A stretch of 63,959 nt of DNA. It comes from Melioribacteraceae bacterium (GTDB lineage: Bacteria; Bacteroidota; Ignavibacteria; Ignavibacteriales; Melioribacteraceae). The position numbers and the translations under genes were made by a program. Each line of letters begins with the position of its first letter. Position 1 is the first letter of the stretch. Location of the stretch: assembly GCA_028280855.1 (NCBI GenBank), contig JANQLA010000087.1, positions 1 through 63,959 of the forward strand, given 5' to 3'. The notes under the pieces are model-generated. The model saw only the letters and a program-made list of their open reading frames with translations. It was not told where the DNA came from and searched no databases. This document shows, piece after piece, positions 10,341 to 45,324 of the stretch.

Positions 10341-10685
10341 ATGCTATCGAAAAACTTAATGGCGGCGTCATCCAAACCGCTGATTCTTGCAATTCTTCGC
10401 GGAGGAGAGAATTACGGTTACCAGATAATCCAGCGGGTAAAAGAGTTATCCGGCGGAGAGCTTGAATGGGCTGAAGGAATGTTGTACCCGGTGTTACACA
10501 AAATGCAGAAAGACGGGTTAGTGCAAACCAAGTGGAAGTTATCGGATAACGGAAGGATGCGTAAGTATTACCGTTTAACAACCAAAGGCAGGGAAGCGCT
10601 TAATAATGAAAAACAGCAATGGTTAAAAGTGCACGGTATGCTTGAGAAAGTATGGCAGCCGGACGCTTCCCTGGGAACTACTTAA
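10341..10685 (+). CDS. PadR-family transcriptional regulator
   Basis: 114 aa. PLILAILRGGENYGYQIIQRVKELSGGELEWAEGMLYPVLHKMQKDGLVQTKWKLSDNGRMRKYYRLTTKGREAL is a textbook PadR winged-helix pattern. Confidence 0.9.
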   Translation: MLSKNLMAASSKPLILAILRGGENYGYQIIQRVKELSGGELEWAEGMLYPVLHKMQKDGLVQTKWKLSDNGRMRKYYRLTTKGREALNNEKQQWLKVHGMLEKVWQPDASLGTT

Positions 10686-10702
10686 TAACATTTGGGGGAA
10701 AT

Positions 10703-13345
10703 GTGTTTAACCTTGAACAAGCAATTAGCATGTGGAAAAAATCGCTTCGTAAAAATCCATCGCTCGAAGACGGTTACATTGAAGAGTTGGAACAGCACCT
10801 TCGCGATTTTATTGACGAATGTTTGAATAAAGGAATGGACGTTGAAGATTCGTTTAATGAAGCTGTAAAAAGTATTGGAGATGCTAAACGGCTTGAAAAG
10901 GAATACTTTAAATCTCGCACCGTAGTTCCCTTAAGCAACTCTCTTACCGGCCGTTTGTGGATGCCCGCTTTATTTGCTAATTATTTTAAGATAGCAGTGA
11001 GGCGATTGGTAAGAAATAAAAGCTACGCATTTATAAATATAATCGGCTTATCCGTAGCAATGGCCGCAAGCTTGCTAATTGTATTGTTTATTGCATACGA
11101 ATTAAGTTTCGATTCTTTCCACGCAAAAGGCGATAACATTTATCGACTAAACGAGATTCAAAAGTTAAAAGGCCAAAGCACTCAGCACGTCGCTTTGTCT
11201 ATGTATCCAATGGGACCAACTTTAAAGCAGGATTTCCCTGAGGTTAAGGATTTTACAAGAGTGCTGAGAGGCCCAAGCGTAGTAAATAAAAAAGATAAAT
11301 ATTTTGTGCTTGATATGTCATTTCATGTTGATCCGGCGTTCTTACAAATTTTCGATTTCGAAGTCGTTCACGGCGATCCTGCTACATCGCTTGGTCAGCC
11401 GGGAAACGTAATTTTAACGAGAGCAACGGCATTAAAAATTTTCGGTACTGAAAACGCGGTTGGAAAACAATTTGAAGCCGACTCAGCCGTGCATACCGTA
11501 ACCGGTATTTTAGAAAACGTTCCGAAGAATTCTCATTTACAATTTGATGCTTTGTTCTCAGTGATGAGCGCCGAAAATGACTGGATGCGCGATAACTGGG
11601 ATTCAAATTTTCTTGTAACTTATCTTTTGCTTGAAGAAGGCATTGATATAAAAAAGCTCGAAAGCAAATTTCCCGACTTTTTAACCAAGTACATCGGCGA
11701 AGATGCTACCGAAACATATACGCTTTACTTGCAAAAGTTAAGCAACATACATCTTGGTTCGATGGACATAACGCACGACTACAGGAATTTTCAGAAGTTC
11801 AATATAAATTCAATTTACACTTTCGGCACGCTGGCTCTCTTAATAATACTTATCGCCGGAATAAACTTCATGAATATTTCCGTTGCGCAATCATCCGTCA
11901 GGTCCAAGGAAGTCGGCATAAGGAAAACATTGGGAGCTTTCCGCGAACAAATTAAACGACAATTCATAAGTGAATCCCTTATTTCAACTATTGCTTCGTT
12001 TCTGATTTCGATCGGGATAGCATTCCTCGTGCTTCCTTATTTGAATGATGTAATAGGCAGGGAGTTAAATTTAAGTTTGCTTACCAAACCTTTATTTGTA
12101 TTCACATTAATAGGCGTTTCGCTTTTTGTTGGGTTATTGGTCGGGTTGTATCCTGCATTTGTTCTTTCAGCTTTCAGTCCTGCAAAAGCATTGGTAAAAA
12201 AGATTCACTCTAAGGGAAAATATTTTTCATTTAGAAGTTTTTTGGTTGTTACGCAGTTCGCTATTTCCATAGCTCTTATTGTTGCAACGGGCATCACCAT
12301 AAAACAGTTGGATTTTATAAGGAATAAAAACCTGGGCTTTGAAACCGATCAGGTGATCCTGGTAAAGATGAACAACACCGCCAATGAAAAATACGACCTG
12401 CTTAAGAATGAAATGAAGCTTAATCCGGACGTTATTGATGTTACACATTCGTCTCAGAAACTTGTAAACAACATACACCAGATGGGAGTGCGTTACGAAG
12501 GGGCGGATGATGTGGTTAAGTTGTCTATTTCAAATGTAAGCGTCGACTACAATTTTATACCGTTTTACGAAATGGAGATAATAGAAGGAAGAAATTTCTC
12601 CGAAGAAATTAAGACGGATTTTACGAATGCGTATATAATAAACGAAACTCTTCAAAATCAAATCGGCTGGGAAAATCCGGTGGGCAAACGGATAAAACTT
12701 GCCTGGTTAGAAGAAATGGGTAAAGTGATTGGCGTTGTTGAAGATTTCAATTTTAATTCGCTCCACAACAAAGTAGAGCCGTTATTGATGAGCGTGCAAG
12801 GATGGGGAGCTTCGGATTTAGCTGTAAAGATAAACGCATCAGCCGCCGGTAGGGCAATCAGCCAGATAAAGGATACGTGGAATAAGCATGTGCCTGATCG
12901 TCCTTTCGAGTATGAGTTTATGGATGAGCATTTTAAAAGCTTGTACGAGTCAGATGAAAAAACGAGCAATGTAATATCATTAATTGCGGGGTTATCAATA
13001 TTTATTGCCTGCCTCGGTTTGTTCGGGTTATCGTCAATAATTGTATCACAGCGAACTAAAGAAATCGGGATAAGGAAAGTTCTCGGCGCTTCATTAATTC
13101 AGTTATTCTCCAATCTTTCAAGCGATTTTCTAAAACTGGTATTGGTTGCATTTATAATATCGGTACCGGTCACCATGTATTTTATGAATAGCTGGCTTGA
13201 CGGATTCGTTTATAGAATTGAGCCGGGAGTATGGCTGTTTGTTTTATCCGGCTTACTGGCAATTTTTATTGCGCTTATTACAATCTCTTTCCACACAGTA
13301 AAAGCGTCGTTAACAAATCCAATTAAATCATTGAGATACGAATAG
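10703..13345 (+). CDS. Headed duplicated FtsX/MacB-type permease, array unit 1
   Basis: GTG start at 10703 chosen because VFNLEQAISMWKKSLRKNPSLEDGYIEELEQHLRD aligns with the paralog heads. The track ATG at 10652 would overlap padR. Two FtsX blocks are marked by SKEVGIRKTLGA and TKEIGIRKVLGA. The tail is NPIKSLRYE*. Confidence 0.85.
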   Translation: MFNLEQAISMWKKSLRKNPSLEDGYIEELEQHLRDFIDECLNKGMDVEDSFNEAVKSIGDAKRLEKEYFKSRTVVPLSNSLTGRLWMPALFANYFKIAVRRLVRNKSYAFINIIGLSVAMAASLLIVLFIAYELSFDSFHAKGDNIYRLNEIQKLKGQSTQHVALSMYPMGPTLKQDFPEVKDFTRVLRGPSVVNKKDKYFVLDMSFHVDPAFLQIFDFEVVHGDPATSLGQPGNVILTRATALKIFGTENAVGKQFEADSAVHTVTGILENVPKNSHLQFDALFSVMSAENDWMRDNWDSNFLVTYLLLEEGIDIKKLESKFPDFLTKYIGEDATETYTLYLQKLSNIHLGSMDITHDYRNFQKFNINSIYTFGTLALLIILIAGINFMNISVAQSSVRSKEVGIRKTLGAFREQIKRQFISESLISTIASFLISIGIAFLVLPYLNDVIGRELNLSLLTKPLFVFTLIGVSLFVGLLVGLYPAFVLSAFSPAKALVKKIHSKGKYFSFRSFLVVTQFAISIALIVATGITIKQLDFIRNKNLGFETDQVILVKMNNTANEKYDLLKNEMKLNPDVIDVTHSSQKLVNNIHQMGVRYEGADDVVKLSISNVSVDYNFIPFYEMEIIEGRNFSEEIKTDFTNAYIINETLQNQIGWENPVGKRIKLAWLEEMGKVIGVVEDFNFNSLHNKVEPLLMSVQGWGASDLAVKINASAAGRAISQIKDTWNKHVPDRPFEYEFMDEHFKSLYESDEKTSNVISLIAGLSIFIACLGLFGLSSIIVSQRTKEIGIRKVLGASLIQLFSNLSSDFLKLVLVAFIISVPVTMYFMNSWLDGFVYRIEPGVWLFVLSGLLAIFIALITISFHTVKASLTNPIKSLRYE

Positions 13346-13354
13346 GGATAAATA

Positions 13355-16009
13355 ATGTTCAATCTTAATAATGAAATAGATAAATGGAAAAAAACGTTTC
13401 GTAAAAATCCGTCGCTCGAAGACGGCTATATTGAAGAGTTGGAGCAGCACTTACGAGATGTTATTGAAGAATGCATGGAAAAAGGATCGGATGTTGAAAC
13501 AGCATTTAATGAAGCTGTAAAAAAGATAGGCAGCGGCGCTAGTATCAGCGATGAGTATTATAAGTCCGCTACAAGAAACAAGTTTAGCGCAAGACCTTCC
13601 TGGCGTGTACCGAGGTGGATGCCTGTAATGATTTGGAATTATTATAAAGTAGCTCTGCGAAATCTGAAGCGGAACAAGGGATTTGCGTTAATAAATATCC
13701 TTGGGTTGAGTATCGGTATCGCTGTTTTTGTTTTAATCACCTTTTATACTCAAAATGAATTAAACTACGACGGCTTTCACAAGGATGGAGAAAGAATATA
13801 CAGGCTGCTGCGGGAAGCGCCTAAATCTAAAGGAGCATATAAAATAGCAGTGACATCCGGCCCGTTCGCACCTGCAATTAAAACAGATTTTTCCGGCGTG
13901 GTAGATGAAGTGTTGAGAGTTTGCCCGGCAGACGGATTGGTCAGCTATCTCGATCAAAATATATGGGAAGACCGCTTTTATTTAGCCGACAATCATTTTT
14001 TTAATTTCTTCTCGTATGAATTATTGACCGGCAATAAAGATGAAGTGCTAAACGGTCCAAACAAACTGGTTATCTCTGACGAAACGGCTGTTAAATATTT
14101 TGGGGATGAAAACCCGGTCGGAAAGCTGATAAAGCTGGATAACCAATATTCCTTCGAGGTTACCGGGGTCTTTCGCTCGAAGCATCCGAACTCTCATTTG
14201 AACTTCGACTTTGTTGCCTCCCTTCAAACGTTTGAAGGAACATGGTTATTGGATGAATGGTGGAGCAATAGTGTTTTCACATATCTCAAACTTAATCCTA
14301 CTACGGATGTAAACTTATTGGATTACCAGCTTGACGCGTTTATGCTTAAATACTTTGGAGATGATTTCGCCCAAACTAAGCTTCCGATGACCCTTACTCT
14401 TGAGCGGCTTGAAAATATTTATATGAACGCAGACTCAAGATATGATCATATTGCTCACGGGAATAAAACGGTTGTAATAATTTTTTCTTTTGTCGCGGTC
14501 TTTGTGCTTCTTATTGCGTGTATCAATTTTATGAACCTATCGTCCGCTAAGTCAGTTAAACGTGCCAAGGAAATAGGTGTTAGAAAAGTAATCGGCGCGC
14601 AAAGGAAAAGTCTTGTAATGCAGTTCATTTCAGAGGCAACAATCTACAGCTTGGCATCCGGCGCTGTTGCCGCTTTACTAATTATATTTATCACTCCTCA
14701 TTTCGAAAATCTGACTGCTTCAGATATTGCCTTCCCTATTGATAATCCTTTGTTCTATTTAGTTTCCTTATTATTCCTGGTTTTCCTTGGCTTCCTTGCT
14801 GGAAGCTACCCTGCATTTGTTCTTTCCGGGTTCAAGCCTGTTAAAGCGCTTTCAAATGAGAAGCTTGCTGACGGTGGATCTGGAATCAGGAGAATATTAG
14901 TTGTTACGCAGTTTGTAATATCTATCGTATTAATATCCGGTGTTATTGTTGTATTCAGCCAAACCAGCTTTTTGATCAATAAAGACAGTGGTTTTGATAA
15001 GGAGCAGGTTGTTCTGATACGTGCAAACTCACCCGAAATAAGGAGCAAACGATTCGAGTTAAAAGAAGCATTAATTAAAGAGAGTGCAATTAAGAGTGTT
15101 TCGTTTATGTCCGGCGAGCCCGGCGGCTTTCACGATAGCTTTGCATTTAAGATTGAAGATAAAGGCGGTGAGTTTTTTCAAATGCGATCTTTGGTAACCG
15201 ACTTCGAATACTTGTCTTTGTATAATGTTGAACTCCTGCACGGAAGAAATTTCTCGGAACAATACTCGCTGGATTCAACACAAGCAGTAATTATAAATGA
15301 AACTGCAGCGAGGTACCTGGACTGGCAGCCAGCCGAAGCAATTGGCAAAAGAATGGCGATTCGTTTCTATAATGAAGAACAGTACCGTTCAGTTATCGGC
15401 GTTGTAAAAGATTATCATTTTACTTCGCTTCACACCAACATAGACCCGTTAGTAATTTTTCCCGCTAATGATCATCGTGTAATAGCAATTAAAATAAAAT
15501 CAGATGATATATCTTCCGTATTGAATACAATCGAAGCAAAGTTCGGCGAACTTATTCCCGGCTTCCCGTTTCAATACGAGTTTTTAGATGAAACATTTGA
15601 AGCGAATTACTCTGCTGAAAAAAAGCAGCTTTCAGTGCTTAGTATCCTTACCGTGCTTGCTATAACAATCGCCGTACTTGGATTGTTCGGCTTGTCGACA
15701 CATTCTGCCGAGTCTCGTAAAAAAGAAATCGGGATTAGAAAAGTGCTGGGCGCTTCAGCACAACGACTGATTGTCCTGCTCATCGGTAATTTTTTAAAAT
15801 TGGTTCTTGTATCAAATATTATTGCTATACCGGTAAGCTGGTATATATCGAAACATTGGCTTTCTAACTTTGCATATCGCACCGAGCTGACGATTGTACC
15901 TTTTGCACTGACTTTAATTGCAACCGTATTGATTGCCTTAATAGCTACCGGGCATCAAACCTTAAAAGCAGTATTTATGAACCCCGTGGAAAGTATAAAA
16001 AATGATTAA
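13355..16009 (+). CDS. Headed duplicated FtsX/MacB-type permease, array unit 2
   Basis: Head MFNLNNEIDKWKKTFRKNPSLEDGYIEELEQHLRD. Motifs AKEIGVRKVIGA and KKEIGIRKVLGA. 9-nt junction to unit 1. Confidence 0.9.
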   Translation: MFNLNNEIDKWKKTFRKNPSLEDGYIEELEQHLRDVIEECMEKGSDVETAFNEAVKKIGSGASISDEYYKSATRNKFSARPSWRVPRWMPVMIWNYYKVALRNLKRNKGFALINILGLSIGIAVFVLITFYTQNELNYDGFHKDGERIYRLLREAPKSKGAYKIAVTSGPFAPAIKTDFSGVVDEVLRVCPADGLVSYLDQNIWEDRFYLADNHFFNFFSYELLTGNKDEVLNGPNKLVISDETAVKYFGDENPVGKLIKLDNQYSFEVTGVFRSKHPNSHLNFDFVASLQTFEGTWLLDEWWSNSVFTYLKLNPTTDVNLLDYQLDAFMLKYFGDDFAQTKLPMTLTLERLENIYMNADSRYDHIAHGNKTVVIIFSFVAVFVLLIACINFMNLSSAKSVKRAKEIGVRKVIGAQRKSLVMQFISEATIYSLASGAVAALLIIFITPHFENLTASDIAFPIDNPLFYLVSLLFLVFLGFLAGSYPAFVLSGFKPVKALSNEKLADGGSGIRRILVVTQFVISIVLISGVIVVFSQTSFLINKDSGFDKEQVVLIRANSPEIRSKRFELKEALIKESAIKSVSFMSGEPGGFHDSFAFKIEDKGGEFFQMRSLVTDFEYLSLYNVELLHGRNFSEQYSLDSTQAVIINETAARYLDWQPAEAIGKRMAIRFYNEEQYRSVIGVVKDYHFTSLHTNIDPLVIFPANDHRVIAIKIKSDDISSVLNTIEAKFGELIPGFPFQYEFLDETFEANYSAEKKQLSVLSILTVLAITIAVLGLFGLSTHSAESRKKEIGIRKVLGASAQRLIVLLIGNFLKLVLVSNIIAIPVSWYISKHWLSNFAYRTELTIVPFALTLIATVLIALIATGHQTLKAVFMNPVESIKND

Positions 16010-16025
16010 ACGTAAAGGCTCAAAT

Positions 16026-18653
16026 ATGATCAATCTTGAAAAAGAAATAAACAAATGGAAAAAATCGCTTCGCAAACATACATCATTGGAAGAAGGAAAC
16101 ATTAAAGAACTCGAAGCTCATTTAAGAGATGCTTATGAAATTGAAATTAGAAAAGGTAAATCAAGCGTTGAAGCATTCCGGGACGCGAAAGATGCTTTAG
16201 GTGAATGCGGGAGTATTAATAATGAATATAGGAAATCGCATGCTCATCGAACGGAAGGCTCAAAAGCAGGGCAGATGTTTGCCGCAGCCCTTTGGTTAAG
16301 TTACTTAAAAGTGGGCGTAAGAAACTTAACAAAGAACAAGAGTTATTCTTTGATAAACATTGGCGGATTAGCAATTGGAATTCTGGTGTGCGCTTTTATT
16401 GCTTTGTTCATTAACAATGAACTTAGTTACGATAATTTTCATAAAGACGGAAATCGAATATACAGAGTGGTAAAAGATTTCGGGGGAACACTACCGGATG
16501 CTACAACGCCGCCGGCTTTAGCTCCTGCATTGTATTCCGAAATTCCTGAGGTTGAGGAGTCTATAAGAATAATGCCCGAATGGGACGCTAAAATTTTGTT
16601 GAGATATGGTGACGCAAGTTTTTACGAAAGCAATTTTTTACTGGCGGACTCAAATTTCTTTTCAATGTTTACTGTAAATCCTGTTGCAGGCGATTTGGAA
16701 TCAGCCTTGATCGATAAAAACTCTATTGTAATTACAGAGTCACTTGCTAAAAAGTATTTTGGAGACTACAATCCTATCGGAAGTGTTATAAATGCTGAAC
16801 GATCAGGAAGGAAAAAGGACTTAACAGTTACTGCTGTTGTAGAGGACTACCCGGAAAACGCGCACTTTGATTTCGATTTTATTATTCACTCATATGATAA
16901 TATTGATGAACATTGGGGATGGTACAATTTTTATACTTATATAAAGCTTAAGCCCAATATTAATATTGCAAATGTTGATCCAAAAATTCAGGAGTTATAT
17001 GAAAAAAATTGGGAGGGCGGCACCAACGTTTTTTATTCGCAGCCTATTTCCGATATCCATCTTCATTCAAACCTTAAATGGGAACTCGGAACAAACGGAA
17101 GCATCAACCAGGTAAACACATTTGCAATTATCGCCATCTTTGTTCTCATCATAGCAGCTATTAATTATATAAATTTGGCAACTGCAAGGTCTGCACTTCG
17201 TGCAAAAGAAGTGGGCATTCGTAAAGTTAGCGGCGCGTTTCGATTTTCACTTATAAAACAATTTTTGATTGAATCGGTTATCACTTCTGTTTTAGCGTTT
17301 ATTATAGCTGTAGGCGTGTTGTATTTTTTGTTGCCGACTTTAAATGAACTATTCAATTCCAACCTTATTTTATTTAATTCAAGTACAACATCGTTATTGA
17401 TAGCTCTTGCAATTGCTACGATTCTTGTCGGGATAATATCGGGCATCTACCCGGCCTTATATCTTTCAAAATTTCAGCCCGTAGTAGTGTTAAAAGATTT
17501 AAAAAATCTTAAAGGCGGTTTGCTTTGGCTGCGAAAGGGATTGATTGTAACACAATTCACGGTTTCAGCAATTTTAATTATCGGAACACTTGCAATACGG
17601 GATCAATTAAACTTCATCCGGGAATTCGATTGGGGAATAGAAAAAAATCACACGCTTGTTTTGCGTAACACCGATAGCTTCGAAAACCGGGACGCACTTA
17701 GAAACGAATTACTGAAATTTTCTTCTATAACGGAGGTGGGAAATGCATCTACAGTTATTGGCGAGTTGAACTGGACAAGAGGTATAAGAGAAAAAGGAAA
17801 GCCAGGTGAAGAAGATGTGTTAACTAACTTTTTAATTGTAGATGAAAACCTGCTAAATGTGCTTAACTTAAAAATGATTGAGGGCAGGAAGTTCTCCGAA
17901 AAATATCCTTCAGATCTGGAGGATGGAATAATCCTTTCGCGCAAGGCAATTAAAGAATTAGAAATAACTGAACCTGCTGTTGGAAAGCAAGTCGTTTGGG
18001 CGACACGCAACGATACGTTGATTTACCGAACAATAGTGGGAGTAACCAGCGACTTTTATTTCAGCTCTTTGCGAGAAGAAATTAAACCTTTTGCATTCGT
18101 ACCAAGCAAGTACAATTTAGCAACAACATACGTAAAACTAGCCGAAGACAATTACAGCGAAACCATTGAATACATAAGTGAAGTATGGAAGAAAATTTTA
18201 CCAAACAGACCAATGGAGTATTCTTTCCTGGATGACACCTTCGCGCAAATGCATAAACAAGATGCAAAGTTCAGTAAAATAATCGGAGTAATGACTTCAC
18301 TCGCTATCGTTATTGCACTGATGGGATTATTCGCTTTGACCGCTTATACGGTTGAGCGTAAAACTAAAGAAATAGGAATAAGGAAAGTGCTGGGAGCGTC
18401 GGTAAAATCAGTCGTTGTAATGATATCTGCCGATTTATTAAAATTGGTGGTTATCTCAATCATAGTCGCAATTCCAACAACCTGGCTGTTGATTGACAGA
18501 TGGTTGGAGGAATTTGCTTATAAAACTGAGTTAACAATTTGGACGTTTATTTTGGGGTCGATATTAACAATAACGATTTCAATAATAACTATAAGTTACA
18601 AATCAATAAAAGCCGCAACGGCAAACCCGACTAACTCATTGAAATATGAATAG
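16026..18653 (+). CDS. Headed duplicated FtsX/MacB-type permease, array unit 3
   Basis: Start set at MINLEKEINKWKKSLRKHTSLEEGNIKELEAHLRD (ATG 16026) by alignment with the paralogs. Motifs AKEVGIRKVSGA and TKEIGIRKVLGA. Confidence 0.88.
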   Translation: MINLEKEINKWKKSLRKHTSLEEGNIKELEAHLRDAYEIEIRKGKSSVEAFRDAKDALGECGSINNEYRKSHAHRTEGSKAGQMFAAALWLSYLKVGVRNLTKNKSYSLINIGGLAIGILVCAFIALFINNELSYDNFHKDGNRIYRVVKDFGGTLPDATTPPALAPALYSEIPEVEESIRIMPEWDAKILLRYGDASFYESNFLLADSNFFSMFTVNPVAGDLESALIDKNSIVITESLAKKYFGDYNPIGSVINAERSGRKKDLTVTAVVEDYPENAHFDFDFIIHSYDNIDEHWGWYNFYTYIKLKPNINIANVDPKIQELYEKNWEGGTNVFYSQPISDIHLHSNLKWELGTNGSINQVNTFAIIAIFVLIIAAINYINLATARSALRAKEVGIRKVSGAFRFSLIKQFLIESVITSVLAFIIAVGVLYFLLPTLNELFNSNLILFNSSTTSLLIALAIATILVGIISGIYPALYLSKFQPVVVLKDLKNLKGGLLWLRKGLIVTQFTVSAILIIGTLAIRDQLNFIREFDWGIEKNHTLVLRNTDSFENRDALRNELLKFSSITEVGNASTVIGELNWTRGIREKGKPGEEDVLTNFLIVDENLLNVLNLKMIEGRKFSEKYPSDLEDGIILSRKAIKELEITEPAVGKQVVWATRNDTLIYRTIVGVTSDFYFSSLREEIKPFAFVPSKYNLATTYVKLAEDNYSETIEYISEVWKKILPNRPMEYSFLDDTFAQMHKQDAKFSKIIGVMTSLAIVIALMGLFALTAYTVERKTKEIGIRKVLGASVKSVVVMISADLLKLVVISIIVAIPTTWLLIDRWLEEFAYKTELTIWTFILGSILTITISIITISYKSIKAATANPTNSLKYE

Positions 18654-34662: not shown

Positions 34663-37314
34663 ATGTTCAATCTCGAAAAGGAAATTATTAAGTGGAAAAA
34701 ATCACTTCGCAAAAACCCCTCACTTGAAGACGGGTACATCGAGGAGTTGGAATCCCATTTACGGGATGTTGTCGATGAACACCTTGAGATGGGAATATCA
34801 TTAGAGGGATCGTTCAACTATGCTGTTGAACAAATTGGCAAATCACATCAACTAGGTAATCAATTTTATAATGCCTACTCGAAAGGATTTAACAGCCGGC
34901 CGCCATGGCAGGCTCCGAAGTGGATTCCCTCGCTTTTGTGGAACTACATAAAGATAGCTTTAAGAAATATTAGAAGACACAAGAGTTATTCGCTTATTAA
35001 TATTTTGGGTTTCTCTATTGCAATGGTTCCCGCCGTGTTAACATTTCTTTACGTAGCGTATGAGTTAAGTTATGATAGACATAATGCAAATTATGACAGG
35101 ATTTACAGAGTTATCTCCGATGGAAGATACGGCACGATAATGCCCTTACCTCTCGGACCCGCGCTTAAGGCAGGAGCGCCGGAAGTTGAAGAAGCGATTC
35201 GTATGAGAGGAGGCGGAGAATATATTAAGTACAAAGATAAGGAAATTGCTGAAAGAAATGTAATGTGGGCGGATCCCGAAATTTTAAAAATATTTACTTT
35301 CGAGTTTGTAAAAGGAAATCCTGAATCCGCCTTCCAAAACAAATATTCCGTTGTTATTTCCGAAAGTGCCGCAAATAGACTTTTGGGAGATAAAAATCCA
35401 CTAGGCAAAATATTGATAGTTCGGGAAGTATATCATTTAAAAATAACAGGGGTCTTTAAAGACTTACCGCAAACATCGCACTTTGACGCTGATTTTATTG
35501 TTCCGGTAACTTTAACTTATGGAAATGAAATAAAGTCTGCGGGTATTACGGTGGATAACTATGCCTGGGGAATGAGCATTTATTTAACTTACGTGTTGCT
35601 TAAACATAATGCTGATCCAGCCGCATTTGAAGAAAAGATAAATTCTATAATTGAAAAGTATGACGGAGATTTTGATTACAGCGATGTTAAATACTCTTTG
35701 CAGCCTTTATCCGATATTCACCTCAAATCTCATTTAGGAGTTGAGCATAAACCGAACGCCGATATCACGCAGATAACAATTTTTTTCTCAATGGCCTTGG
35801 TGATACTCATTATAGCAGTAATTAACTATGTTAACCTATCAACTGCTAGGGCTACTAAAAGAATTAAGGAGATCGGTGTAAGAAAAGTAATCGGAGCCCG
35901 CAAAACGCAGCTTGTGCGGCAGTTAATGCTGGAAACCATAGTTATTACGTCGTCCTCTTTTATAATTACTCTAATAATGGTGAATTTTATATTACCCTAT
36001 TTCGAAAACTTTATTGGCATTCAATTACAGTTCAATATATTCGCCAACTTAGATTTGCTTAGCGGAATATTGTTGATAATTCTTTTAGTGTCTATAATTT
36101 CCGGTATATATCCAGCATTTGTTCTTTCCTCTATGCGTCCTTTATCATTTTTCAGCGGAACATTTACGTCGAATCGTAAGCCGGTTTTCAGAAGTGTTCT
36201 GGTAATCTTACAGTTTGTAATGACCATTTTACTTGTAATTTTCACGGCTGTTGTAAATAGGCAAATGGAATACATTGCGAACAAGGATTTAGGTTACTCA
36301 ACGGACAACATTATAAACATAACTCTGCGTGGTAAAACATTCCAAAGTAGTAAACAGACACTAAAAAATGAATTATTAAAAAATCCCGGAATCACGAAAG
36401 TATCCATTTCATCTGCTAATCCGGGATTTGTCTCGCAATACAGTAATTTTATTTGGGAAGGGAGACCGAAAGGACATAATACATTTATTAATTATGCTGC
36501 TATAGACAACGACTTTATTGATTTATATAATCTGAAAATCCTTCAGGGTAGACAATTCCTGGAAAATTTTAAATCCGACAAGACGGAAGGAGTTATTATA
36601 AATGAAGCCGCACTTTGGGAGACCGGCTGGAAAAATCCTATAGGAAAAACAATTAATCACAGAACCCGTTATGGAGATTTTGATAGACGGGTAATCGGTG
36701 TTGTAAAGAATTTTCAGTCCAAGTCATTGCATAGTACAATTCCACCGTTGTACCTAGTTGTTGATTCAACGATGTCAAATAGAACGGTTTCAATCAAAAT
36801 CTCTACTGAAAACCAGGAAGCAACACTAGCATTCATTAAACAGCAAATGGAGAAATTCCAACCAGAATATGAGTTTGCATATTTTTTCTTCGGTGATCTG
36901 CTTAAAATAATGTACAAAGCCGAACATAAGATACAGACTGTCTTCACCATCTTTTCAGTATTCACGATACTTATCTCGTGCCTGGGATTATTTGGATTGG
37001 TTTCATTTACTACCGAAACAAGGCAGAAAGAAATCGGCATACGAAAAGTACTCGGCGCATCTTCATTACAGATAGGCTCTAAGATGTTGCGCGAAATGAT
37101 GATACTAATTTTAATTGCAAGCATATTATCGGCTCCACTTGCTTACTACGGCGCGGGAAAATGGCTTGAGGATTTTGCGTACAAGATTGATATGGGAATC
37201 AGCGTATTTATTATCTCCTGCTTGCTGGTCTATTTTCTTTCTATTGCTGCAATGATTGTACAGGTAAGAAAAGCGGCGCTGCGAAATCCTGTTGAAACAT
37301 TGATGTATGAATAA
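34663..37314 (+). CDS. Headed duplicated FtsX/MacB-type permease, array unit 10
   Basis: Head MFNLEKEIIKWKKSLRKNPSLEDGYIEELESHLRD. Motifs IKEIGVRKVIGA and QKEIGIRKVLGA. 8-nt junction. Confidence 0.9.
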   Translation: MFNLEKEIIKWKKSLRKNPSLEDGYIEELESHLRDVVDEHLEMGISLEGSFNYAVEQIGKSHQLGNQFYNAYSKGFNSRPPWQAPKWIPSLLWNYIKIALRNIRRHKSYSLINILGFSIAMVPAVLTFLYVAYELSYDRHNANYDRIYRVISDGRYGTIMPLPLGPALKAGAPEVEEAIRMRGGGEYIKYKDKEIAERNVMWADPEILKIFTFEFVKGNPESAFQNKYSVVISESAANRLLGDKNPLGKILIVREVYHLKITGVFKDLPQTSHFDADFIVPVTLTYGNEIKSAGITVDNYAWGMSIYLTYVLLKHNADPAAFEEKINSIIEKYDGDFDYSDVKYSLQPLSDIHLKSHLGVEHKPNADITQITIFFSMALVILIIAVINYVNLSTARATKRIKEIGVRKVIGARKTQLVRQLMLETIVITSSSFIITLIMVNFILPYFENFIGIQLQFNIFANLDLLSGILLIILLVSIISGIYPAFVLSSMRPLSFFSGTFTSNRKPVFRSVLVILQFVMTILLVIFTAVVNRQMEYIANKDLGYSTDNIINITLRGKTFQSSKQTLKNELLKNPGITKVSISSANPGFVSQYSNFIWEGRPKGHNTFINYAAIDNDFIDLYNLKILQGRQFLENFKSDKTEGVIINEAALWETGWKNPIGKTINHRTRYGDFDRRVIGVVKNFQSKSLHSTIPPLYLVVDSTMSNRTVSIKISTENQEATLAFIKQQMEKFQPEYEFAYFFFGDLLKIMYKAEHKIQTVFTIFSVFTILISCLGLFGLVSFTTETRQKEIGIRKVLGASSLQIGSKMLREMMILILIASILSAPLAYYGAGKWLEDFAYKIDMGISVFIISCLLVYFLSIAAMIVQVRKAALRNPVETLMYE

Positions 37315-37328: not shown

Positions 37329-39953
37329 ATGTTCAACCTCGAAAAAGAAATTAGTAAGTGGAAAAAATCACTTCGTAAAAATCCCTCACTCGAAGACGGG
37401 TACATTGAGGAATTGGAATCCCATTTGTGGGATGTTATTGATGAACACGTGGAGATGGGAATATCATTAGAGGGATCGTTTAACTATGCAGTTGAGCAGA
37501 TAGGCAAATCACATCAACTAGGTAATCAATTTTATAATGCCTACTCAAAAGGATTTAACAACAGACCTCCCTGGCAAACACCAAAGTGGATGCCTTCGCT
37601 TTTGTGGAATTATATAAAAACGGCCGTTAGAATAATTAGAACTCGCAAAACCTTTTCGTTTATTAACATTGCCGGTTTATCACTTGGCATGGTATGCTTC
37701 ATTTTAATCTCGCTATTAATATGGGATGAGGTAAGTTATGATAACTATCATGTAAATATTGATCGATTGTACCGTGTTAATACAATTACCCCGAGTCAAG
37801 ATAAAATAAACCCCAATTCTTCTTTACGATTGGGCAAAGAGCTTAAAAGTAAATACCCTGGAATAGAAGCGCATACAAATCTTGTAGCATGGGGAAGATC
37901 ACTAGTTAGATACGAAAGCAAGACATTCGACGAACAAGGTATTTACCTGGTTGATTCCGACTTCTTTAAAATGTTCTCTTTTAATTTTATCGAGGGTAAT
38001 CCTTACGAAGTACTAAAAGATAAGTACTCCATAGTAATTACAGAGGAAACAGCGAAAAAATATTTCGGGGAGGAAAACGCACTGGGCAAAAAAGTATACT
38101 CTGCAGCTTATGAAAGAGATTTCTTTGTGAGCGCAGTTATACAGAATTTACCTAAGAATTCCACGCTTAAATTTAATATAGCAGCCAATGTAGAATTAAT
38201 GCCGCAACAGCGGAAAGAAAGCTGGGAGTTTACGGGTTATACCTTTGTTATGATTGACTCAAATGTGTCGAATGAAGAAGCCAACAGTAAGCTATTCAAT
38301 TTTTACCGTGAGAACGTTGATCCTGATACAGAGTTATCATTGCAACTGCAGGAATTTTCAACACTTCATCTATACCAGCATGGAAAACCCGGATTGATCA
38401 AAGTGGTTTATCTTTCTGGATCGATTGCAGTTTTTATACTGATTATTGCTTTTATAAATTTTATGAATTTGTCTACTGCAAAAGCAGCTAAAAGGGCGAA
38501 AGAAGTAATAATTAAAAAAGTAAATGGCGCTAACAATTTTCAATTGATATTCCAATTTATCAGCGAATCGATATTTATGGCCTTTCTTTCCCTTATCCTG
38601 GCATTGATTATTGTATGGTTTGCGCTACCCTATTTTAACGCATTTACAATGAAAGATATTGATTTATTTGGTCCGATGTATAAGTCCTACCTGGCTGGGG
38701 CGATATTGTTGGCAATTATTTCCGGATTAATTTCAGGAAGCTACCCGGCTTTTGTACTTTCATCATTTAAACCTGCTAGTGTTATTAAGGGCAATTACAG
38801 CAAAGGTAAAGCGGGTTTTTTGTTTAGAAAGATTCTTATCACCGGACAATTTGCAATTTCAATTGGTTTGATTATTTGCACGGTTATAATAATTCAACAG
38901 TTAACTTATATCCAAACCAAAGAAATCGGGTTAGACCGTGCGCAAATTTTAATTGTCAATAACAATCCTGAACTAAATTCAAAGTTCGATTCTTATAAAA
39001 ACGAGCTATTAAAAAACAATAGCGTAAAAAGTGTTTCTGCTTCCGCGACACTGCCATTCGATGTAGGACAAAGCATTGGAATTAATTGGGAAAGAAGCAA
39101 CATAGACGAATTACAGGAGGTGAAATACACTGTTGTTGATTACGATTATTTTTCTACAATGGGTATACAAATATTAAAGGGCAGACCTTTCTCTAAAACA
39201 TCGGCATATGATTCTTCCGAGTCATGTTTGATAAATGAAACCTTACTTAGCATGATGTCATTCGACGATCCAATCGGTAAAAAGCTTTACTTTGGGCACC
39301 CGGCGTTTCCTGAAGAGAAGAGGCACTTAAAAATAATAGGTGTTGTTAAGGATTTTCATTCCCAATCGCTTCGTAACCGTATAAAGCCTTTTGTATTCAA
39401 TATGAAAAGAGACTGGAATAATTATGTATTCGTTAAGCTGCAACCGGGAGTTTTTAAGAATACTATTGAAGGAATTAAAAAAGTTACTAAAAGCTTTGCG
39501 GGAAGCTACACGTATACTTTTGACTTTCTTGATGGTGCGTATGATGATTTGTACGTTGCGGAAATAAAGATGGGGCAAATTGTGTATGTTCTGGCAGGAG
39601 TCGCCGTTCTTATATCTTGCCTTGGCTTATTTGGGATGGCATCTTTTACAGCCGAGCAAAAAATAAAAGAGATCGGAATTCGAAAGGTACTTGGCGCTAA
39701 TGTAACTGATATGTTTAAGCTGCTTTCCATGGAATTTATTAAATGGATTATTTATGCAAATTTACTGGCGTGGCCTTTGGCATACTATGTAATGAATAAA
39801 TGGCTGCAGGATTTCGCGTTCAAAATTGAAATCGAGTATTGGGTTTTTATTTTATCTGGAATATTAGCGCTTTCTATCGCAATTATTACAATCAGCTACA
39901 CACTTTTTAAGACTACTTATACAAATCCTGTTGAAGCATTAAAATATGAATAA
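37329..39953 (+). CDS. Headed duplicated FtsX/MacB-type permease, array unit 11
   Basis: Head MFNLEKEISKWKKSLRKNPSLEDGYIEELESHLWD. Motifs AKEVIIKKVNGA (degenerate) and IKEIGIRKVLGA. Confidence 0.88.
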   Translation: MFNLEKEISKWKKSLRKNPSLEDGYIEELESHLWDVIDEHVEMGISLEGSFNYAVEQIGKSHQLGNQFYNAYSKGFNNRPPWQTPKWMPSLLWNYIKTAVRIIRTRKTFSFINIAGLSLGMVCFILISLLIWDEVSYDNYHVNIDRLYRVNTITPSQDKINPNSSLRLGKELKSKYPGIEAHTNLVAWGRSLVRYESKTFDEQGIYLVDSDFFKMFSFNFIEGNPYEVLKDKYSIVITEETAKKYFGEENALGKKVYSAAYERDFFVSAVIQNLPKNSTLKFNIAANVELMPQQRKESWEFTGYTFVMIDSNVSNEEANSKLFNFYRENVDPDTELSLQLQEFSTLHLYQHGKPGLIKVVYLSGSIAVFILIIAFINFMNLSTAKAAKRAKEVIIKKVNGANNFQLIFQFISESIFMAFLSLILALIIVWFALPYFNAFTMKDIDLFGPMYKSYLAGAILLAIISGLISGSYPAFVLSSFKPASVIKGNYSKGKAGFLFRKILITGQFAISIGLIICTVIIIQQLTYIQTKEIGLDRAQILIVNNNPELNSKFDSYKNELLKNNSVKSVSASATLPFDVGQSIGINWERSNIDELQEVKYTVVDYDYFSTMGIQILKGRPFSKTSAYDSSESCLINETLLSMMSFDDPIGKKLYFGHPAFPEEKRHLKIIGVVKDFHSQSLRNRIKPFVFNMKRDWNNYVFVKLQPGVFKNTIEGIKKVTKSFAGSYTYTFDFLDGAYDDLYVAEIKMGQIVYVLAGVAVLISCLGLFGMASFTAEQKIKEIGIRKVLGANVTDMFKLLSMEFIKWIIYANLLAWPLAYYVMNKWLQDFAFKIEIEYWVFILSGILALSIAIITISYTLFKTTYTNPVEALKYE

Positions 39954-40005
39954 CTCTCTTGCGGAGCTCTTGCCTGCGGAGTGATACATTAAAATGGAGA
40001 GAGAA

Positions 40006-42653
40006 ATGTTTGACCTAGAGGAATCAATTAAGCTATGGAGAAAGTCCTTAAGAAGAAATCAAGCCCTTGAAGACAGTTATGTTGAAGAGCTAGAATCACA
40101 CTTACGCGAAAAAATTGATGATTTTGTAAATAAAGGGTTAAACGAAGAAACATCATTTTATATGGCAGAGAAAGAAATAGGAAAAACAGAAAGTATTGGG
40201 GAGGAATATTATAAAACAGATACCAAACATAGAATTCCTCACCAGCCATGGAAAGCAAATTTATGGACTCCAATGTTGCTTTATAATTACTTAAAGATTG
40301 TTCTGCGAAATATTAGACATTCAAAAAGCGGTACTTTTATAAATGTTTCAGGCCTGGCAGTCGGTTTCGCATCTTTTATTCTTATTTTTCTCTGGGTACA
40401 GGATGAGATAAGTTACGACCGATTTCATGAAAAAGCTGATAGGATTTACAGACTTTGTTCTCATATTATTATCGGAAATACGGATTTAAACCAAACTCAG
40501 ACTCCTGCCCTGCTCCCCACCGTACTAAAAAGCGACTACCCGGAAGTTGAACAAACTGTTAGGCTTGGCTTTCCTATTACTGCAACGGCCACCTATCAAA
40601 ACAAAGCATTTGTTGAAAACAATATTCTTCCTGCAGATTCAACATTTTTTGACGTGTTTTCATTCAAATTAATTAAAGGGAATACAAAAACAGCATTAGC
40701 CAAGCCGGGCTCAATTGTTATTACAGATGAAACAGCGCAAAAATACTTTGGAAATGAAGACCCAATTGGGAAAGTAATTATTCTTAACGGACAATTTGAG
40801 CTTTCGATAACCGGTGTAGTAGAGAATATTCCTCGAAATTCACATTTTCATTTCGATATACCTCTCTCCATGATAACTATCAACGATTTTATAAATAAAT
40901 CATGGAACAGCAACGATTTCAGAACGTACATTGTACTACGCGACGGGTTTTCTTCAGACGATTTGGAAGCAAAGTTTCCCGAGTTAATTGTTAAATATGT
41001 AGGTAAAGGAAAATCGGATTGGTTAAAAGAAGGAAATAGCTATGAATATTATTTACAGCCGTTAACCGAGATACATTTAAAGTCTGATATTAGTTCCGAG
41101 TTTGAACCCAACGGAAATGAAACGTATGTATATGTGTTTAGCATTATTGCTGCTTTTGTACTGCTTATAGCATGTATTAATTATATGAATCTAACAACAG
41201 CAAGGTCGACAGCTCGAACAAAAGAAATAGGTTTACGTAAGGTTGTCGGTTCTACAAGGAGTCAAATTATAATCCGGTTCTTGTATGAGGCAGTCATATT
41301 TAGCTTAATCGCACTCTCAATAGGTATACTAATAGTCGCTTTAACTCTACCAGTATTTAATAACTTTGTTAACAAAGAGCTGCACATAAATATATTTAGC
41401 AATCTTAACACCTTAATTTATCTTCTTTTTTTAGCCGTTATTATCGGATTAATTTCAGGAAGTTATCCGTCTTTTTATCTGTCTTTATTTAAACCGATAT
41501 CCGTTATTAGAGGAAATTTAAGAGAAGGTATAAAAAGCGCAAGATTTAGAAATTTCCTAGTGGTGTTTCAGTTTTCAATATCAATTGTGCTGTTTATCGG
41601 AACGGTCATTATTATTAAACAAGTAGAGTATTTTAATGATAAAAACCTAGGATTTGATAAAGACAATGTAATAGTAATAAAAAACGTTCAGGTTATGGGA
41701 GATCAAAAAAAAGCATTTAAAGAAGCACTTTTGAAATATGCGGGTATAAATTCTGTTTCGGGATCTTACTCCTTGCCTGGAGAGCACTTTGTAAATTACG
41801 GTTTTAAGCCTGAAGACTCGGAAACAGTATTGCTTAATTTCGGAATTTGTGACCCGGTATTTATTGAAACGCTAAGCCTCAAAATGGAACAAGGACGTTT
41901 TTTTCCCGTCAGTTCTCCACGGATTCCACAGCAATTATTATAAATGAAACTGCAGCAAAGCTATTAAATTGGGACAAACCTATTGGTAAAACTTTAAATT
42001 CTTTGGGCAGGACATTTCATGTAATCGGCGTGGTGAAAGATTTCCATTATGAATCACTTCACGAAAGAATAAAACCAATGGCTCTTCTCAATCTGAATTT
42101 AACTCTTAATTGGCCCGAAAAGAATATATCTGCAAGAATAAACAACAGTAATGCACGGGAGACAATAGCTTTTATTTCCGAAACCTGGGAATTATTTTCA
42201 CAAAACTACCCTCTTGAATATACATTCTTCGATAAAGACTACGAAGCCCTTTATAATAATGAAATACAAACAGGAAAAGTCTTTAAGATATTTTCATTTC
42301 TTGCAATATTTATAGCCTCTCTTGGATTGATAGGATTAACGTCATTTACTGTAGAAAAGAAAACTAAAGAGATTGGAGTTCGTAAAGTTCTTGGAGCAAG
42401 TACTTCGCAAATCTTACGATTGCTTACTAGTCAATTTGTCCGTTGGGTGATGATATCAAATGCAATCGCCTGGCCAATTGCCTATTTAGCTGCGAAAGAA
42501 TGGCTTGCCAATTTTCCATACCGGGTTGATATCAATTTTGGGATTTTGGTTTTAGCAGGCTTTACTGCTATAATTATCGCAGTTGGTACAATTTCTTTGC
42601 AGGCTTATCGTGCGGCGGTGGCTAACCCGGTGAGAGCTCTTAAGTATGAATAA
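40006..42653 (+). pseudogene. Headed duplicated FtsX/MacB-type permease, array unit 12, interrupted by a -1 frameshift in a T7 run
   Basis: ORFs 39994..41943 and 42003..42653 are the two parts of one unit. The head is MFDLEESIKLWRKSLRRNQALEDSYVEELESHLRE. At 41898..41904 the frame reads GRFFPVSSPRIPQQLL*. With one more T it would read GRFFSRQFSTDSTAIIINETAAKLLNWDKPIGK..., which matches the paralogs. Confidence 0.8.
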
Positions 42654-42910
42654 GCAATAGAATAAAAATCTGAATTAAAAATTTCTACTCAACTCAAATG
42701 CTTTTTTAAGATTAGCTTCTTTAATGCCTTCGATTACTTCGGAGTTGTCACCAAGTATTTCCATTAAGGCATTTTTAAAATATCACATTGATCTTTTGAC
42801 ATAACCTTTTTGTGGAATAGCTAAGAATAAAATACTTATCAAGCGGACAACTATTTTTCTTTCTTCGGAGTCTAACTTGTAATATCTTAAAGTTAAACCG
42901 GAGAAAGCGC

Positions 42911-45268
42911 GTGTTTAAAAACCACATTAAGATAGCCCTTCGAAATATTTTTAATCAAAAACTATTTTCTTTTATAAATGTATTCGGTCTTGCTGCCGGC
43001 ATAGCTTGCAGTATATTAATATTGCTTTGGGTACAGGACGAAATCGGTTACGATACGTTTCACGAAAACTCGGAGAATATATACCGCGTAGTTGAAAACC
43101 AGTTTTATGCCGGCGGAGAAATTTTTCCGGTTGCCGTAACTCCGGGGCCGCTTGCTCTGGCGTTAAAGGATGAGTACCCTGAAATTATACATGCGACCAG
43201 GTATGAAACCCGCGACAGAACACTGGGATACCAGGATAATGTATTTAGAGAACGGCTTGCTTATGCAGACCCCTCTTTCCTTGAAATCTTTTCTTTTCCT
43301 CTTGTTGTGGGTAATCCAGCGACAGCATTATCTGATCCGTACTCTATTTTACTGTCCGAAAAATCGGCGGAAAAATATTTCGGTAAAGAAAATCCCGTTG
43401 GTAAGACAATGTTGGTAAACAATAAATACAGGGTTGAAGTTAGGGGAGTTTTTAAGAATGTTCCTGAAAACTCGCATTTGCAATTTGATTTCTTACTTCC
43501 CTTTGTTTTTATGAAGGAAGAAGGGCGTAATATTGAAAGATGGAGCAGCAACTCATATTATACTTACGTACAGTTACAAAAAGGAATTGAGAAAGAAACC
43601 GTTGATGAAAAGATAAAAGACATAATAAAGAGAAATAATGAAGGGTCCGTAACTGAAGTGTTTCTCCAGCCGATGCTGGACATTCATTTATATTCCGGTT
43701 CAAGATTCGCTGCGGATATTGGTGGTCATGGCGATATCGAATATGTAAACATATTTTCTATTGTTGCCTTGTTTGTACTTTTAATCGCATGTATTAATTT
43801 TATGAACCTTTCGACGGCAAGATCTGCAAAAAGAGCAAAAGAAGTTGGTTTAAGAAGGGTTGTTGGTGCGGCCCGGTATCAAATTGTAAGGCAGTTTTTT
43901 ATCGAATCAATTTTATTAACATTTATCGCGTTAGTGATCTCAATCGTGCTTGTAAGCTTTCTTTTACCCGCTTTTAATGATCTTTCGGGTAAAACAATAA
44001 ATTTAATGGAAATTGACGCCGGTATAGTCGCAGGCATCATTTTATTAGCATTGTTTACCGGTGTGTTATCGGGAAGTTATCCTGCATTTTATCTCTCCTC
44101 GTTTTTGCCTGCAAAGGTATTAAAAGAGAATTACGCTTCGGGTAAAGGAGGAGCTTTGTTTAGAAGGGCACTGGTTGTTACTCAATTCGCTCTTTCAATC
44201 ATTCTGATTATAGGTACAACCGTTGTTTACCGGCAATTGAATTTTATTCAGAATAAAAAGCTAGGCTTCCAAAGAGAGAATATACTATACCTGGAGTTTG
44301 GAGAAAAAATTTTTAATAACATTGAAACAGCTAAGAGCGAATTGCTGAAAAATCATGATATTTTATCTGTAACGGCCTCTACAGGTTTACCTACATATTA
44401 CGGTAATTCAACTTCAAGCTTTGGTTGGGAAGGAAAAAATCCCAATGAATCAATACTTATGCATTTTGTTGGAGTTGATGAGGATTATACCAAAACATTT
44501 AACATGGAAATGGCCGAAGGAAGATTTTATTCAAAAGAGTTTTCTGCGGATACAAATTCAATAGTCGTGAACGAAGCCGCTATAAAGGTAATGGGAATGG
44601 AGGATCCTATAGGTAAACGATTATCCATGTGGGGAAAAGAGTTCACAATCATTGGTGTTTTAAAGGATTTTCATTTTAAGAAACTTGATACCAAGATTGA
44701 GCCCTTGGTTTTTAGAATGTTCACGGATTGGAGTGATTTATTGCTTGTGCGAATAGCTCCGGACAACATACCCAATACTTTAAATTATATAAAAACGAAA
44801 CTGGCTGAAATAGCTCCGAAAGAGCCGTTTGAATACTTTTTCCTTGATGAAGAGTTTGATTATTTGTACAAGTCTGAGCAAAGAATGGGAAAACTGTTTT
44901 CTTCATTTTCAATACTGGCTTTGCTAATTTCTTGTCTAGGTTTATTTGGGCTGGCTTCTTATATGGCTGAAAGAAGAACAAAGGAAATAGGTATTAGAAA
45001 AGTTCTTGGGGGTTCGCTTACAAACTTGACGTACCTATTAACTTCTGAATTTACAAAATTGGTAATATTTTCAAACATAATTTCGTGGCCTATTGCTTAT
45101 TACTTAATGAATAATTGGCTGCAAAACTTTGCATATAGAATAAATATAGAGCTTTGGTTTTTCATCGGTTCGGGATTGTTTGCTTTACTTATTGCGCTTT
45201 TAACGGTGTTTTTCCAAACCATCAAAGCTGCAATGGTAAACCCTGTGGAGTCTCTAAAGCATGAGTAG
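42911..45268 (+). CDS. Headless duplicated FtsX/MacB-type permease, array unit 13
   Basis: 785 aa with a GTG start, preceded by ggaga 6 nt upstream. It begins directly at MFKNHIKIALRNIFNQKLFSFINVFGL, the segment that follows the head in the other units. Motifs AKEVGLRRVVGA and TKEIGIRKVLGG. Confidence 0.85.
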   Translation: MFKNHIKIALRNIFNQKLFSFINVFGLAAGIACSILILLWVQDEIGYDTFHENSENIYRVVENQFYAGGEIFPVAVTPGPLALALKDEYPEIIHATRYETRDRTLGYQDNVFRERLAYADPSFLEIFSFPLVVGNPATALSDPYSILLSEKSAEKYFGKENPVGKTMLVNNKYRVEVRGVFKNVPENSHLQFDFLLPFVFMKEEGRNIERWSSNSYYTYVQLQKGIEKETVDEKIKDIIKRNNEGSVTEVFLQPMLDIHLYSGSRFAADIGGHGDIEYVNIFSIVALFVLLIACINFMNLSTARSAKRAKEVGLRRVVGAARYQIVRQFFIESILLTFIALVISIVLVSFLLPAFNDLSGKTINLMEIDAGIVAGIILLALFTGVLSGSYPAFYLSSFLPAKVLKENYASGKGGALFRRALVVTQFALSIILIIGTTVVYRQLNFIQNKKLGFQRENILYLEFGEKIFNNIETAKSELLKNHDILSVTASTGLPTYYGNSTSSFGWEGKNPNESILMHFVGVDEDYTKTFNMEMAEGRFYSKEFSADTNSIVVNEAAIKVMGMEDPIGKRLSMWGKEFTIIGVLKDFHFKKLDTKIEPLVFRMFTDWSDLLLVRIAPDNIPNTLNYIKTKLAEIAPKEPFEYFFLDEEFDYLYKSEQRMGKLFSSFSILALLISCLGLFGLASYMAERRTKEIGIRKVLGGSLTNLTYLLTSEFTKLVIFSNIISWPIAYYLMNNWLQNFAYRINIELWFFIGSGLFALLIALLTVFFQTIKAAMVNPVESLKHE

Positions 45269-45276
45269 TTGGTAAC

Positions 45277-45324
45277 ATGTTCAATCTCGAAAGAGAAATT
45301 ATTAAATGGGAAAGATCAAAATGA
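45277..45324 (+). pseudogene. Orphan head: first 15 codons of a further array unit, then a stop
   Basis: atgttcaatctcgaaagagaaattattaaatgggaaagatcaaaatga encodes MFNLEREIIKWERSK*. It lies 8 nt after the unit 13 stop, the standard junction spacing. It is near-identical at the nucleotide level to the start of unit 10. Confidence 0.7.

Follow-up and report, generated by a model that had tools for sequence, protein, structure and literature searches.

The 63,959-nucleotide (nt) stretch of contig JANQLA010000087.1, referred to here as the window, contains a large, well-preserved locus of a known kind, in which the gene for a PadR-family regulator heads a tandem array of ADOP-like type VII ABC permease genes with a permease-prefix domain; its one unusual feature is the number of copies behind a single regulator. 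With moderate confidence, we read this locus as a PadR-repressed permease array that would be ATPase-driven and would signal through its N-terminal domains. The original prediction, made from the DNA letters, had placed 13 same-strand paralogs at 10703-45268 behind padR, and the open reading frame (ORF) listing and translations bear this out, with padR at 10341-10685 on the forward strand. Eight of the 12 junctions between the paralogs, numbered U1 to U13, are 8-16 nt long, as had been counted (gaps of 9, 16, 8, 10, 8, 61, 15, 71, 8, 14, 52 and 257 nt), and with homology-guided starts padR and U1 are 17 nt apart. The near-invariant N-terminal region ascribed to 12 units, hereafter the head, was found in 12 of the 13, with U13 the exception. 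The genes of the array are as follows.

10341..10685, forward strand: padR, 114 amino acids (aa), PadR-family winged-helix regulator (Pfam PadR PF03551, E = 5.8e-25).
10703..13345, forward strand: U1, headed fused permease, 880 aa, GTG start.
13355..16009, forward strand: U2, headed fused permease, 884 aa.
16026..18653, forward strand: U3, headed fused permease, 875 aa, with the most divergent head of the array.
18662..21322, forward strand: U4, headed fused permease, 886 aa.
21333..23987, forward strand: U5, headed fused permease, 884 aa.
23996..26641, forward strand: U6, headed fused permease, 881 aa.
26703..29306, forward strand: U7, headed fused permease, 867 aa, the modelled unit.
29322..31952, forward strand: U8, headed fused permease, 876 aa.
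32024..34654, forward strand: U9, headed fused permease, 876 aa.
34663..37314, forward strand: U10, headed fused permease, 883 aa.
37329..39953, forward strand: U11, headed fused permease, 874 aa.
40006..42653, forward strand: U12, headed fused permease with a 1-nt frameshift at a T7 run (~41899-41905), 882 aa with one T added.
42911..45268, forward strand: U13, headless fused permease, 785 aa, GTG start, 257-nt gap upstream.
45277..45324, forward strand: relic of a 14th head, read from the sequence as MFNLEREIIKWERSK (15 codons) followed by a stop.

All units belong to a kind already known, the ADOP-like fused type VII ABC permeases (MacB/YbbP/LolCE-like). Pfam MacB_PCD and FtsX matched all 13, in agreement with the predicted double MacB_PCD/FtsX architecture; two stretches of each domain were listed for U1 alone, the member shown in detail. 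Pfam, NCBIfam and a structural model all indicate a duplicated permease architecture in a single chain. The proposed links to ADOP (TIGR03434) and to a permease-prefix model also held. ADOP matched the full body of all 13 units (best E-value 1.8e-93), although below its curated cutoff of 622.3 bits (265.8 bits for U1), while perm_prefix_1 (NF038403) matched 11 of 13 at E <= 0.001 (best E-value 2.1e-10; 30.7 bits for U1 against a cutoff of 30). Because the ADOP scores fall so far below the cutoff, the units represent a clade related to ADOP and not the curated subfamily itself. For padR, the top NCBIfam model was TIGR03433 padR_acidobact (93.9 bits, cutoff 101.8), which we take to be the PadR subfamily that adjoins ADOP genes. 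The ADOP/PadR loci of Acidobacteria (TIGR03434/TIGR03433) resemble this array in several respects: the permease is a fused double MacB_PCD/FtsX chain of ~800-900 aa that begins with a permease-prefix domain, a short PadR gene immediately precedes it, genomes carry many paralogs, and there is usually no ATPase next to it. They differ in score (ADOP 266 bits here, for U1, versus 622; padR 93.9 versus 101.8), in that the host here is Ignavibacteriota-like, and in having one headed unit per padR where this locus has twelve.

U7 was modelled with AlphaFold2 from an alignment of 75 sequences (mean pLDDT 83.9, pTM 0.76). The model contains 8 transmembrane (TM) helices and two periplasmic domains, in the order three-helix head, linker, TM1, periplasmic domain 1, TM2-4, TM5, periplasmic domain 2, TM6-8 and a short C-terminal helix. 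Both copies of the KEIGIRK-type motif that had been proposed for every unit are present in 13 of 13; their spacing is 375-389 aa, and the full pattern holds in 11, U5 and U8 departing from it at the first residue of copy 1 only. In the U7 model these motifs are short helices at 397-406 (TM2/TM3) and 772-780 (TM6/TM7). The closest folds to the model are E. coli YbbAP (9GE7/9GE6; E = 2e-18), then MacB, LolCDE, BceAB and HrtBA; sequence comparison puts MacB closest among solved proteins (E = 3e-13), the KEIGIRK motif aligning with its RTQEIGVRMAVGA. Coupling helices at equivalent positions of YbbP contact each YbbA monomer, with mechanotransmission on the periplasmic side (PMC12646458). On the evidence of the model, the KEIGIRK motifs are predicted to be the cytoplasmic coupling helices of a type VII ABC permease of MacB/FtsX fold. 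Both of these motifs are kept in all 13 units, as is the predicted NPxxSLKYE-type ending, which corresponds to the conserved C-terminal helix (NPVxSLKYE) on the cytoplasmic side, and the invariant residues are retained in every unit.

E. coli YbbAP-TesA (9GE6/9GE7/9GE8; PMC12646458) is accordingly the nearest structural parallel. It too is a type VII ABC permease whose single chain forms a pseudo-dimer, with a pair of periplasmic domains and a pair of coupling helices, and it acts by mechanotransmission on membrane-embedded hydrophobic substrates. YbbP nevertheless has 10 TM helices (4+2+4) against 8 (4+4) in the units described here and, unlike the array, has no head and no PadR, an adjacent ATPase gene (ybbA), a single copy and TesA as partner.

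Twelve headed units behind one padR lie outside the range seen in relatives. Across ~78 padR loci, covering 10 kb on each side so that longer arrays may be undercounted, one headed unit directly follows padR in 34 complete cases, two in 4, three in 1 and four in 1-2; one Ignavibacteria metagenome-assembled genome (MAG) has at least 5 headed units (L160; relatives' loci are given by L numbers), with 3 at another locus. The 13-copy tandem battery had itself been called striking, and this applies to the number of headed units per padR but not to batteries as such, which are not rare. Bacteroidota commonly carry headless arrays that pack 9-10 units into 22 kb (L011, L061, L033). These are same-strand tandem arrays of the same permease body, and U13 is of their type, but they have neither head nor padR and often carry a single MacB/DarD-type ATPase gene at one end. 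A 42-kb cluster with ten ADOP paralogs, the proteins of which are abundant in the proteome, lies within Psychroflexus torquis genomic island 43 beside an addiction module (PMC3914696); that cluster also includes other transporters and ATP-binding genes, and neither a PadR at the head of the array nor headed units are described there. Dyadobacter genomes hold 28-33 copies (PMC11573002).

The head was originally noted as a near-invariant curiosity. Its presence is confirmed, but it has an identity, the perm_prefix_1 domain (HAAS in the literature), and it travels with padR: among the fetched loci, padR lies directly upstream of 47 of 50 first-in-run headed units versus 3 of 99 headless ones (Fisher p = 2e-31). 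This association makes the head the likely link between permease and regulator. A head profile recovered 4216 cluster representatives; of the best 150, those that are full-length measure ~870-930 aa and begin with the head. Ravi et al. proposed, on purely computational grounds, that HAAS domains pair with PadR, and listed fusions to FtsX/MacB_PCD permeases (PMC11237479). Their HAAS-PadR system resembles the present one in that a helical N-terminal domain on a membrane protein is always paired with a stand-alone PadR gene. In the U7 model the head comprises helices 4-16, 23-42 and 47-58/61-73, followed by a disordered linker (68-88). The third helix breaks at the invariant G59 of an IGxxxxL motif that lacks the proline of the HAAS GxP kink. 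We use HAAS as a literature label, resting on perm_prefix_1 and the published work, with which the three-helix model is consistent.

Full-length identity between units is 33-55%, with most in-array pairs at 33-40% and U9/U13 the closest (55%). Mean pairwise identity among the paralogs is 71% for head residues 1-40, 39% for the rest of the head, 48% for TM1, 41-43% for the FtsX blocks and 30% for each of periplasmic domains 1 and 2, so the periplasmic domains are the most divergent parts, at a level within the ~25-35% estimated by eye. Synonymous differences (pS) are saturated in all regions at ~0.75-0.8, and the median for head codons 1-40 is 0.78. The paralogs are therefore old and, since synonymous sites are saturated in the head as well, the head is maintained by selection on the protein.

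Orthologs of individual units were found for U3 (L124, 58% identity), U4 (L098, 54%), U6 (L083, L094, L098 and L160, 48-50%), U7 (L160, 58%) and U13 (L083, 59%, also headless), and the gene orders U6 to U7 and U4 to U6 are preserved in other genomes. The periplasmic domains are 41-62% identical between orthologs, near the level of the TM blocks, but 30% between paralogs, and thus define old, stable subfamilies. The idea that diversification is focused in these domains was thus not borne out, pS being saturated everywhere. Positive or diversifying selection on the periplasmic domains was also considered as a cause; saturation precludes the test, and the ortholog comparisons argue for stable subfamilies. 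As judged by these comparisons, the array is a set of old, distinct subfamilies with orthologs elsewhere and not a fast-diversifying battery.

Unlike every other domain, the head is about as conserved between orthologs (65-75%) as between paralogs (71% for residues 1-40), which suggests a single constraint common to all units and would fit one shared binding partner. Local events are superimposed on this pattern. The first ~100 codons of U10 and U11 (34663-34970, 37329-37640) share ~90% nt identity and the remainder ~45%; the first ~300 nt of U4, U5 and U6 (18662-18980, 21333-21650, 23996-24310) share 80-98%, followed by ~45%. We take this as a sign that neighbouring heads were recently homogenised by gene conversion or head-module exchange. 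Gene conversion as the general cause of head conservation is ruled out by the saturated synonymous sites of codons 1-40, and the process is real only in U10/U11 and U4/U5/U6.

Candidate control elements precede padR.

10265..10299, forward strand: candidate sigma-70-like padR promoter, TTGTCT, 17-nt spacer containing O1, TATGTT, read from the sequence.
10271..10289, no strand assigned: candidate operator O1, TACCTAacttttcTAGGTA, perfect palindrome TACCTA-N7-TAGGTA.
10304..10322, no strand assigned: candidate operator O2, TACATAgaaaatcTAGGTA, TACATA-N7-TAGGTA with 1 mismatch, ~20-40 nt before the padR start.

Although this promoter falls below the 9-of-12 threshold of the promoter scan, the same layout, TTGACA-[TACCTA-N7-TAGGTA]-TATNAT, lies upstream of padR in five relatives (L114, L120, L122, L107 and L098). 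O1 and O2 are the only operator matches, allowing up to 2 mismatches, across the 64-kb window. In 2.2 Mb of loci, ATAC[AC]TA-N7-TA[GT]GTAT has 22 exact matches, 21 of which precede a padR start by 27-106 nt; when as many as 2 mismatches are allowed, 89 sites fall within 11.9 kb of padR-upstream DNA versus 31 elsewhere in the 2.2 Mb. A site was present upstream of 72 of 80 related padR genes, most commonly 41 nt before the ATG. The Listeria PadR repressors LstR and LltR chiefly control their own operons, which encode membrane proteins (PMC6624303). Together, the operator data support, but do not prove, autorepression at one promoter.

A sigma-54-type element, TGGCAY-N5-TYGCW, was seen just upstream of 34 of the 80 related padR genes (L084-L159; for example, L111 at ~1920-1980 and L123 at ~8060-8120). 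In those relatives, the -12 part of the element overlaps the left half of the PadR operator, and the padR of the window has its sigma-70-like promoter in place of this element. In L167, a pair made up of padR and a permease gene has a sigma-54 activator two-component pair as its neighbour.

Common control of the array, as originally proposed, is plausible, given two operators at the padR promoter and no other in 64 kb. Inside the array, counts of promoter-like (sigma-70) and terminator-like sites were not above those in shuffled sequence, hairpins in the longer gaps (52-71 nt) were weak (z no better than -1.9), and the Bacteroidetes-type promoter motif TAnnTTTG had no matches near gene starts. 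The DUF2752 gene that follows the array is served by a separate promoter region, which a close relative shares. Sequence features are therefore compatible with one long array transcript, and a single unit is favoured because the eight 8-16-nt junctions leave no room for signals and terminators are not above chance.

We next consider the genomic setting. UvrB from the window is 85-92% identical to proteins from Ignavibacteriae and Melioribacteraceae MAGs, which places the host as Ignavibacteriota-like, and the padR protein is also present on a TARA marine scaffold and in an independent Logan assembly (L001); by sequence, the host is an uncultured marine Ignavibacteriota-like bacterium. The relative with 92% identical UvrB has the same right-hand gene order (uvrB, PhzF, GNAT, NTPase, esterase, TM2, DUF2752), but beyond DUF2752 it has nadA, nadC and nadB in place of the array. 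DNA homology to this close relative starts at ~45395 of the window (L163, 15650-16040; L165), and the head relic at 45277-45324 lies on the array side of that boundary. In this synteny comparison the array was not at the same site in the relative, and the 35-kb array thus occupies a variable region at a synteny break. The setting is island-like. Base composition showed no anomaly.

Such a setting raises the alternative of a loose collection, in which PadR would govern only itself and the first block, and later blocks with promoters of their own and unrelated regulation would have amassed as paralogs in a variable region. The absence of the region from the same site in the relative would suit this account, as would the four longer gaps (61, 71, 52 and 257 nt) and U13, which is headless, follows the 257-nt gap and belongs to a subfamily usual in ATPase-linked headless arrays. 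Those gaps, however, hold no operator, promoter excess or terminator and only weak hairpins, all genes are on the same strand, and heads are kept on units far from padR; we therefore consider a loose collection unlikely. Flanking repeats that might mark U13 as an inserted cassette were also considered and rejected, since only short AT-rich matches were detected. Inside the 257-nt gap before U13, a 29-codon minus-strand ORF (MEILGDNSEVIEGIKEANLKKAFELSRNF, 42700-42790) may be a gene fragment.

Two breaks in the window bear on its integrity. At an A9 run near 50507-50514, uvrB (49870-51886, minus strand) falls into two ORFs, whereas UvrB is intact, at 671 aa, in all relatives examined, so the assembly probably carries homopolymer errors. 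U12 is likewise broken at a homopolymer, yielding ORFs at 39994-41943 and 42003-42653; by analogy with uvrB, its break is probably an assembly error and the gene intact in the organism. The head relic after U13 implies that the array formerly had at least one further headed unit. These two frameshifts, the relic and the metagenomic source could be taken to mean that the array is mis-assembled or degenerating, with little present function. We regard this as very improbable: twelve ORFs of ~785-886 aa are intact and the thirteenth is restored by one base, paralogs only 33-55% identical are unlikely to have suffered assembly collapse, invariant residues persist in every unit, and L001 independently repeats the gene order padR-U1-U2-U3.

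In the reading that we favour, the locus would be a PadR-repressed operon or small set of operons. PadR, bound to two palindromic operators, one in the promoter spacer and one just downstream, would keep its own gene and those that follow switched off. Each permease would be a single chain imitating a MacB dimer, twelve headed and one headless, and would most likely work together with a dimeric MacB/LolD/FtsE-type ATPase whose gene lies outside the window. Mechanotransmission would then act on a substrate at the periplasmic side or in the outer leaflet; amphiphilic or hydrophobic compounds, for instance, might be extracted or expelled. A separate substrate or partner for each unit is probable because the units are old, distinct subfamilies with differing periplasmic domains. 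The cytoplasmic three-helix head would probably report the state of the permease to PadR by direct contact, such that any loaded permease could relieve repression of the whole set. This would resemble signalling from BceAB to BceS, minus the kinase. In BceAB-BceRS of Firmicutes, too, a type VII ABC permease signals its activity to the regulator that controls its expression, and its fold is matched (7TCG, 8G3A); Bce signals by a histidine kinase and response regulator, whereas here a fused cytoplasmic head is proposed to act on a PadR repressor. The data show the architecture and fold, the conserved operators, the linkage of head and padR, the age and orthologs of the paralogs and the lack of an ATPase gene in the window; we infer PadR-operator binding, head-PadR contact, ATPase use, the substrates and co-transcription.

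Several points weigh against this proposal. None of the ORFs in the 64-kb window encodes an ABC ATPase. The heads differ from those of the HAAS-PadR system in matching neither its models nor a solved fold: there was no match at E <= 10 to Pfam HAAS-related DUF1700, DUF1129 or DUF1048, none below E = 0.4 among PDB sequences (including the HAAS structure 2O3L) and none below E = 1 among solved folds. Head-PadR contact has no experimental demonstration for any permease of this kind, and U13, being headless, could not signal by this route. Internal promoters invisible to the scans could lie in the 52-, 61-, 71- and 257-nt gaps, and the sequence comes from a metagenome assembly that contains homopolymer errors.

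The missing ATPase would fit an alternative in which the units are not transporters but pure sensors, that is, ATPase-independent membrane receptors that do no more than bind ligands with their periplasmic domains and control PadR through the head. In relatives, too, most pairs of padR and a headed unit have no ATPase gene beside them, and the family is named 'orphan' permeases for this reason. In relatives, however, ATPases of ~230 aa, which score best against DarD, MacB, FtsE and LolD models, are encoded at an end of headless arrays; in L108 and L109 the gene immediately precedes padR, and in L087 it neighbours a mixture of headed and headless units, so that matching-clade ATPases do adjoin padR and headed units in these three loci. 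The coupling-helix motifs and C-terminal helix kept in 13 of 13 units are hard to explain without an ATPase, and a regulon of sensors alone would have no output. On this evidence pure sensors seem distinctly unlikely. A single MacB/DarD-type ATPase gene lies at one end of headless Bacteroidota arrays in L003, L004, L005, L025, L030, L031, L036 and L037, which implies that one ATPase can serve many permeases. Together with the conserved coupling helices, the neighbouring ATPases of relatives thus favour, for the PadR-repressed array, a shared ATPase encoded elsewhere.

More tentatively, the array may work as a sensor with many inputs and one output. Interchangeable heads would converge on one PadR, any of a dozen envelope insults would induce the whole battery, and selection, together with gene conversion between neighbours, would keep the heads compatible with one another. 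We offer this as a possibility about which we remain doubtful.

ADOP-like permeases make up some of the largest paralog families of Acidobacteriota, Bacteroidota and related phyla, with >8000 relatives of one unit at E < 1e-20, yet no experimentally defined function for them was found in the literature searched. What is new here is the operator and promoter design conserved across relatives, the statistical link between head and padR, the old subfamilies with conserved periplasmic domains, the local homogenisation of heads and the island-like setting. With 13 old subfamilies behind one regulator that has a clear operator, head-PadR signalling, a shared trans-encoded ATPase and periplasmic recognition become testable, and the conserved operator motif could serve to predict, in other genomes, the regulons of PadR proteins of this family. 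If true, the reading with many inputs and one output would describe a kinase-free, transporter-coupled signalling logic that has had no experimental description so far.

Two further gene pairs lie upstream of padR. Directly adjacent, at 9426-10036, are a Gp49-like toxin gene (9710-10036, minus strand) and, just downstream of it, an HTH_3 antitoxin-like gene; the published P. torquis ADOP island also has an addiction module. A LytTR-type two-component pair, comprising a His_kinase/HATPase_c sensor and a Response_reg-LytTR regulator, is encoded on the forward strand at 5577-7426, 3 kb upstream of padR.

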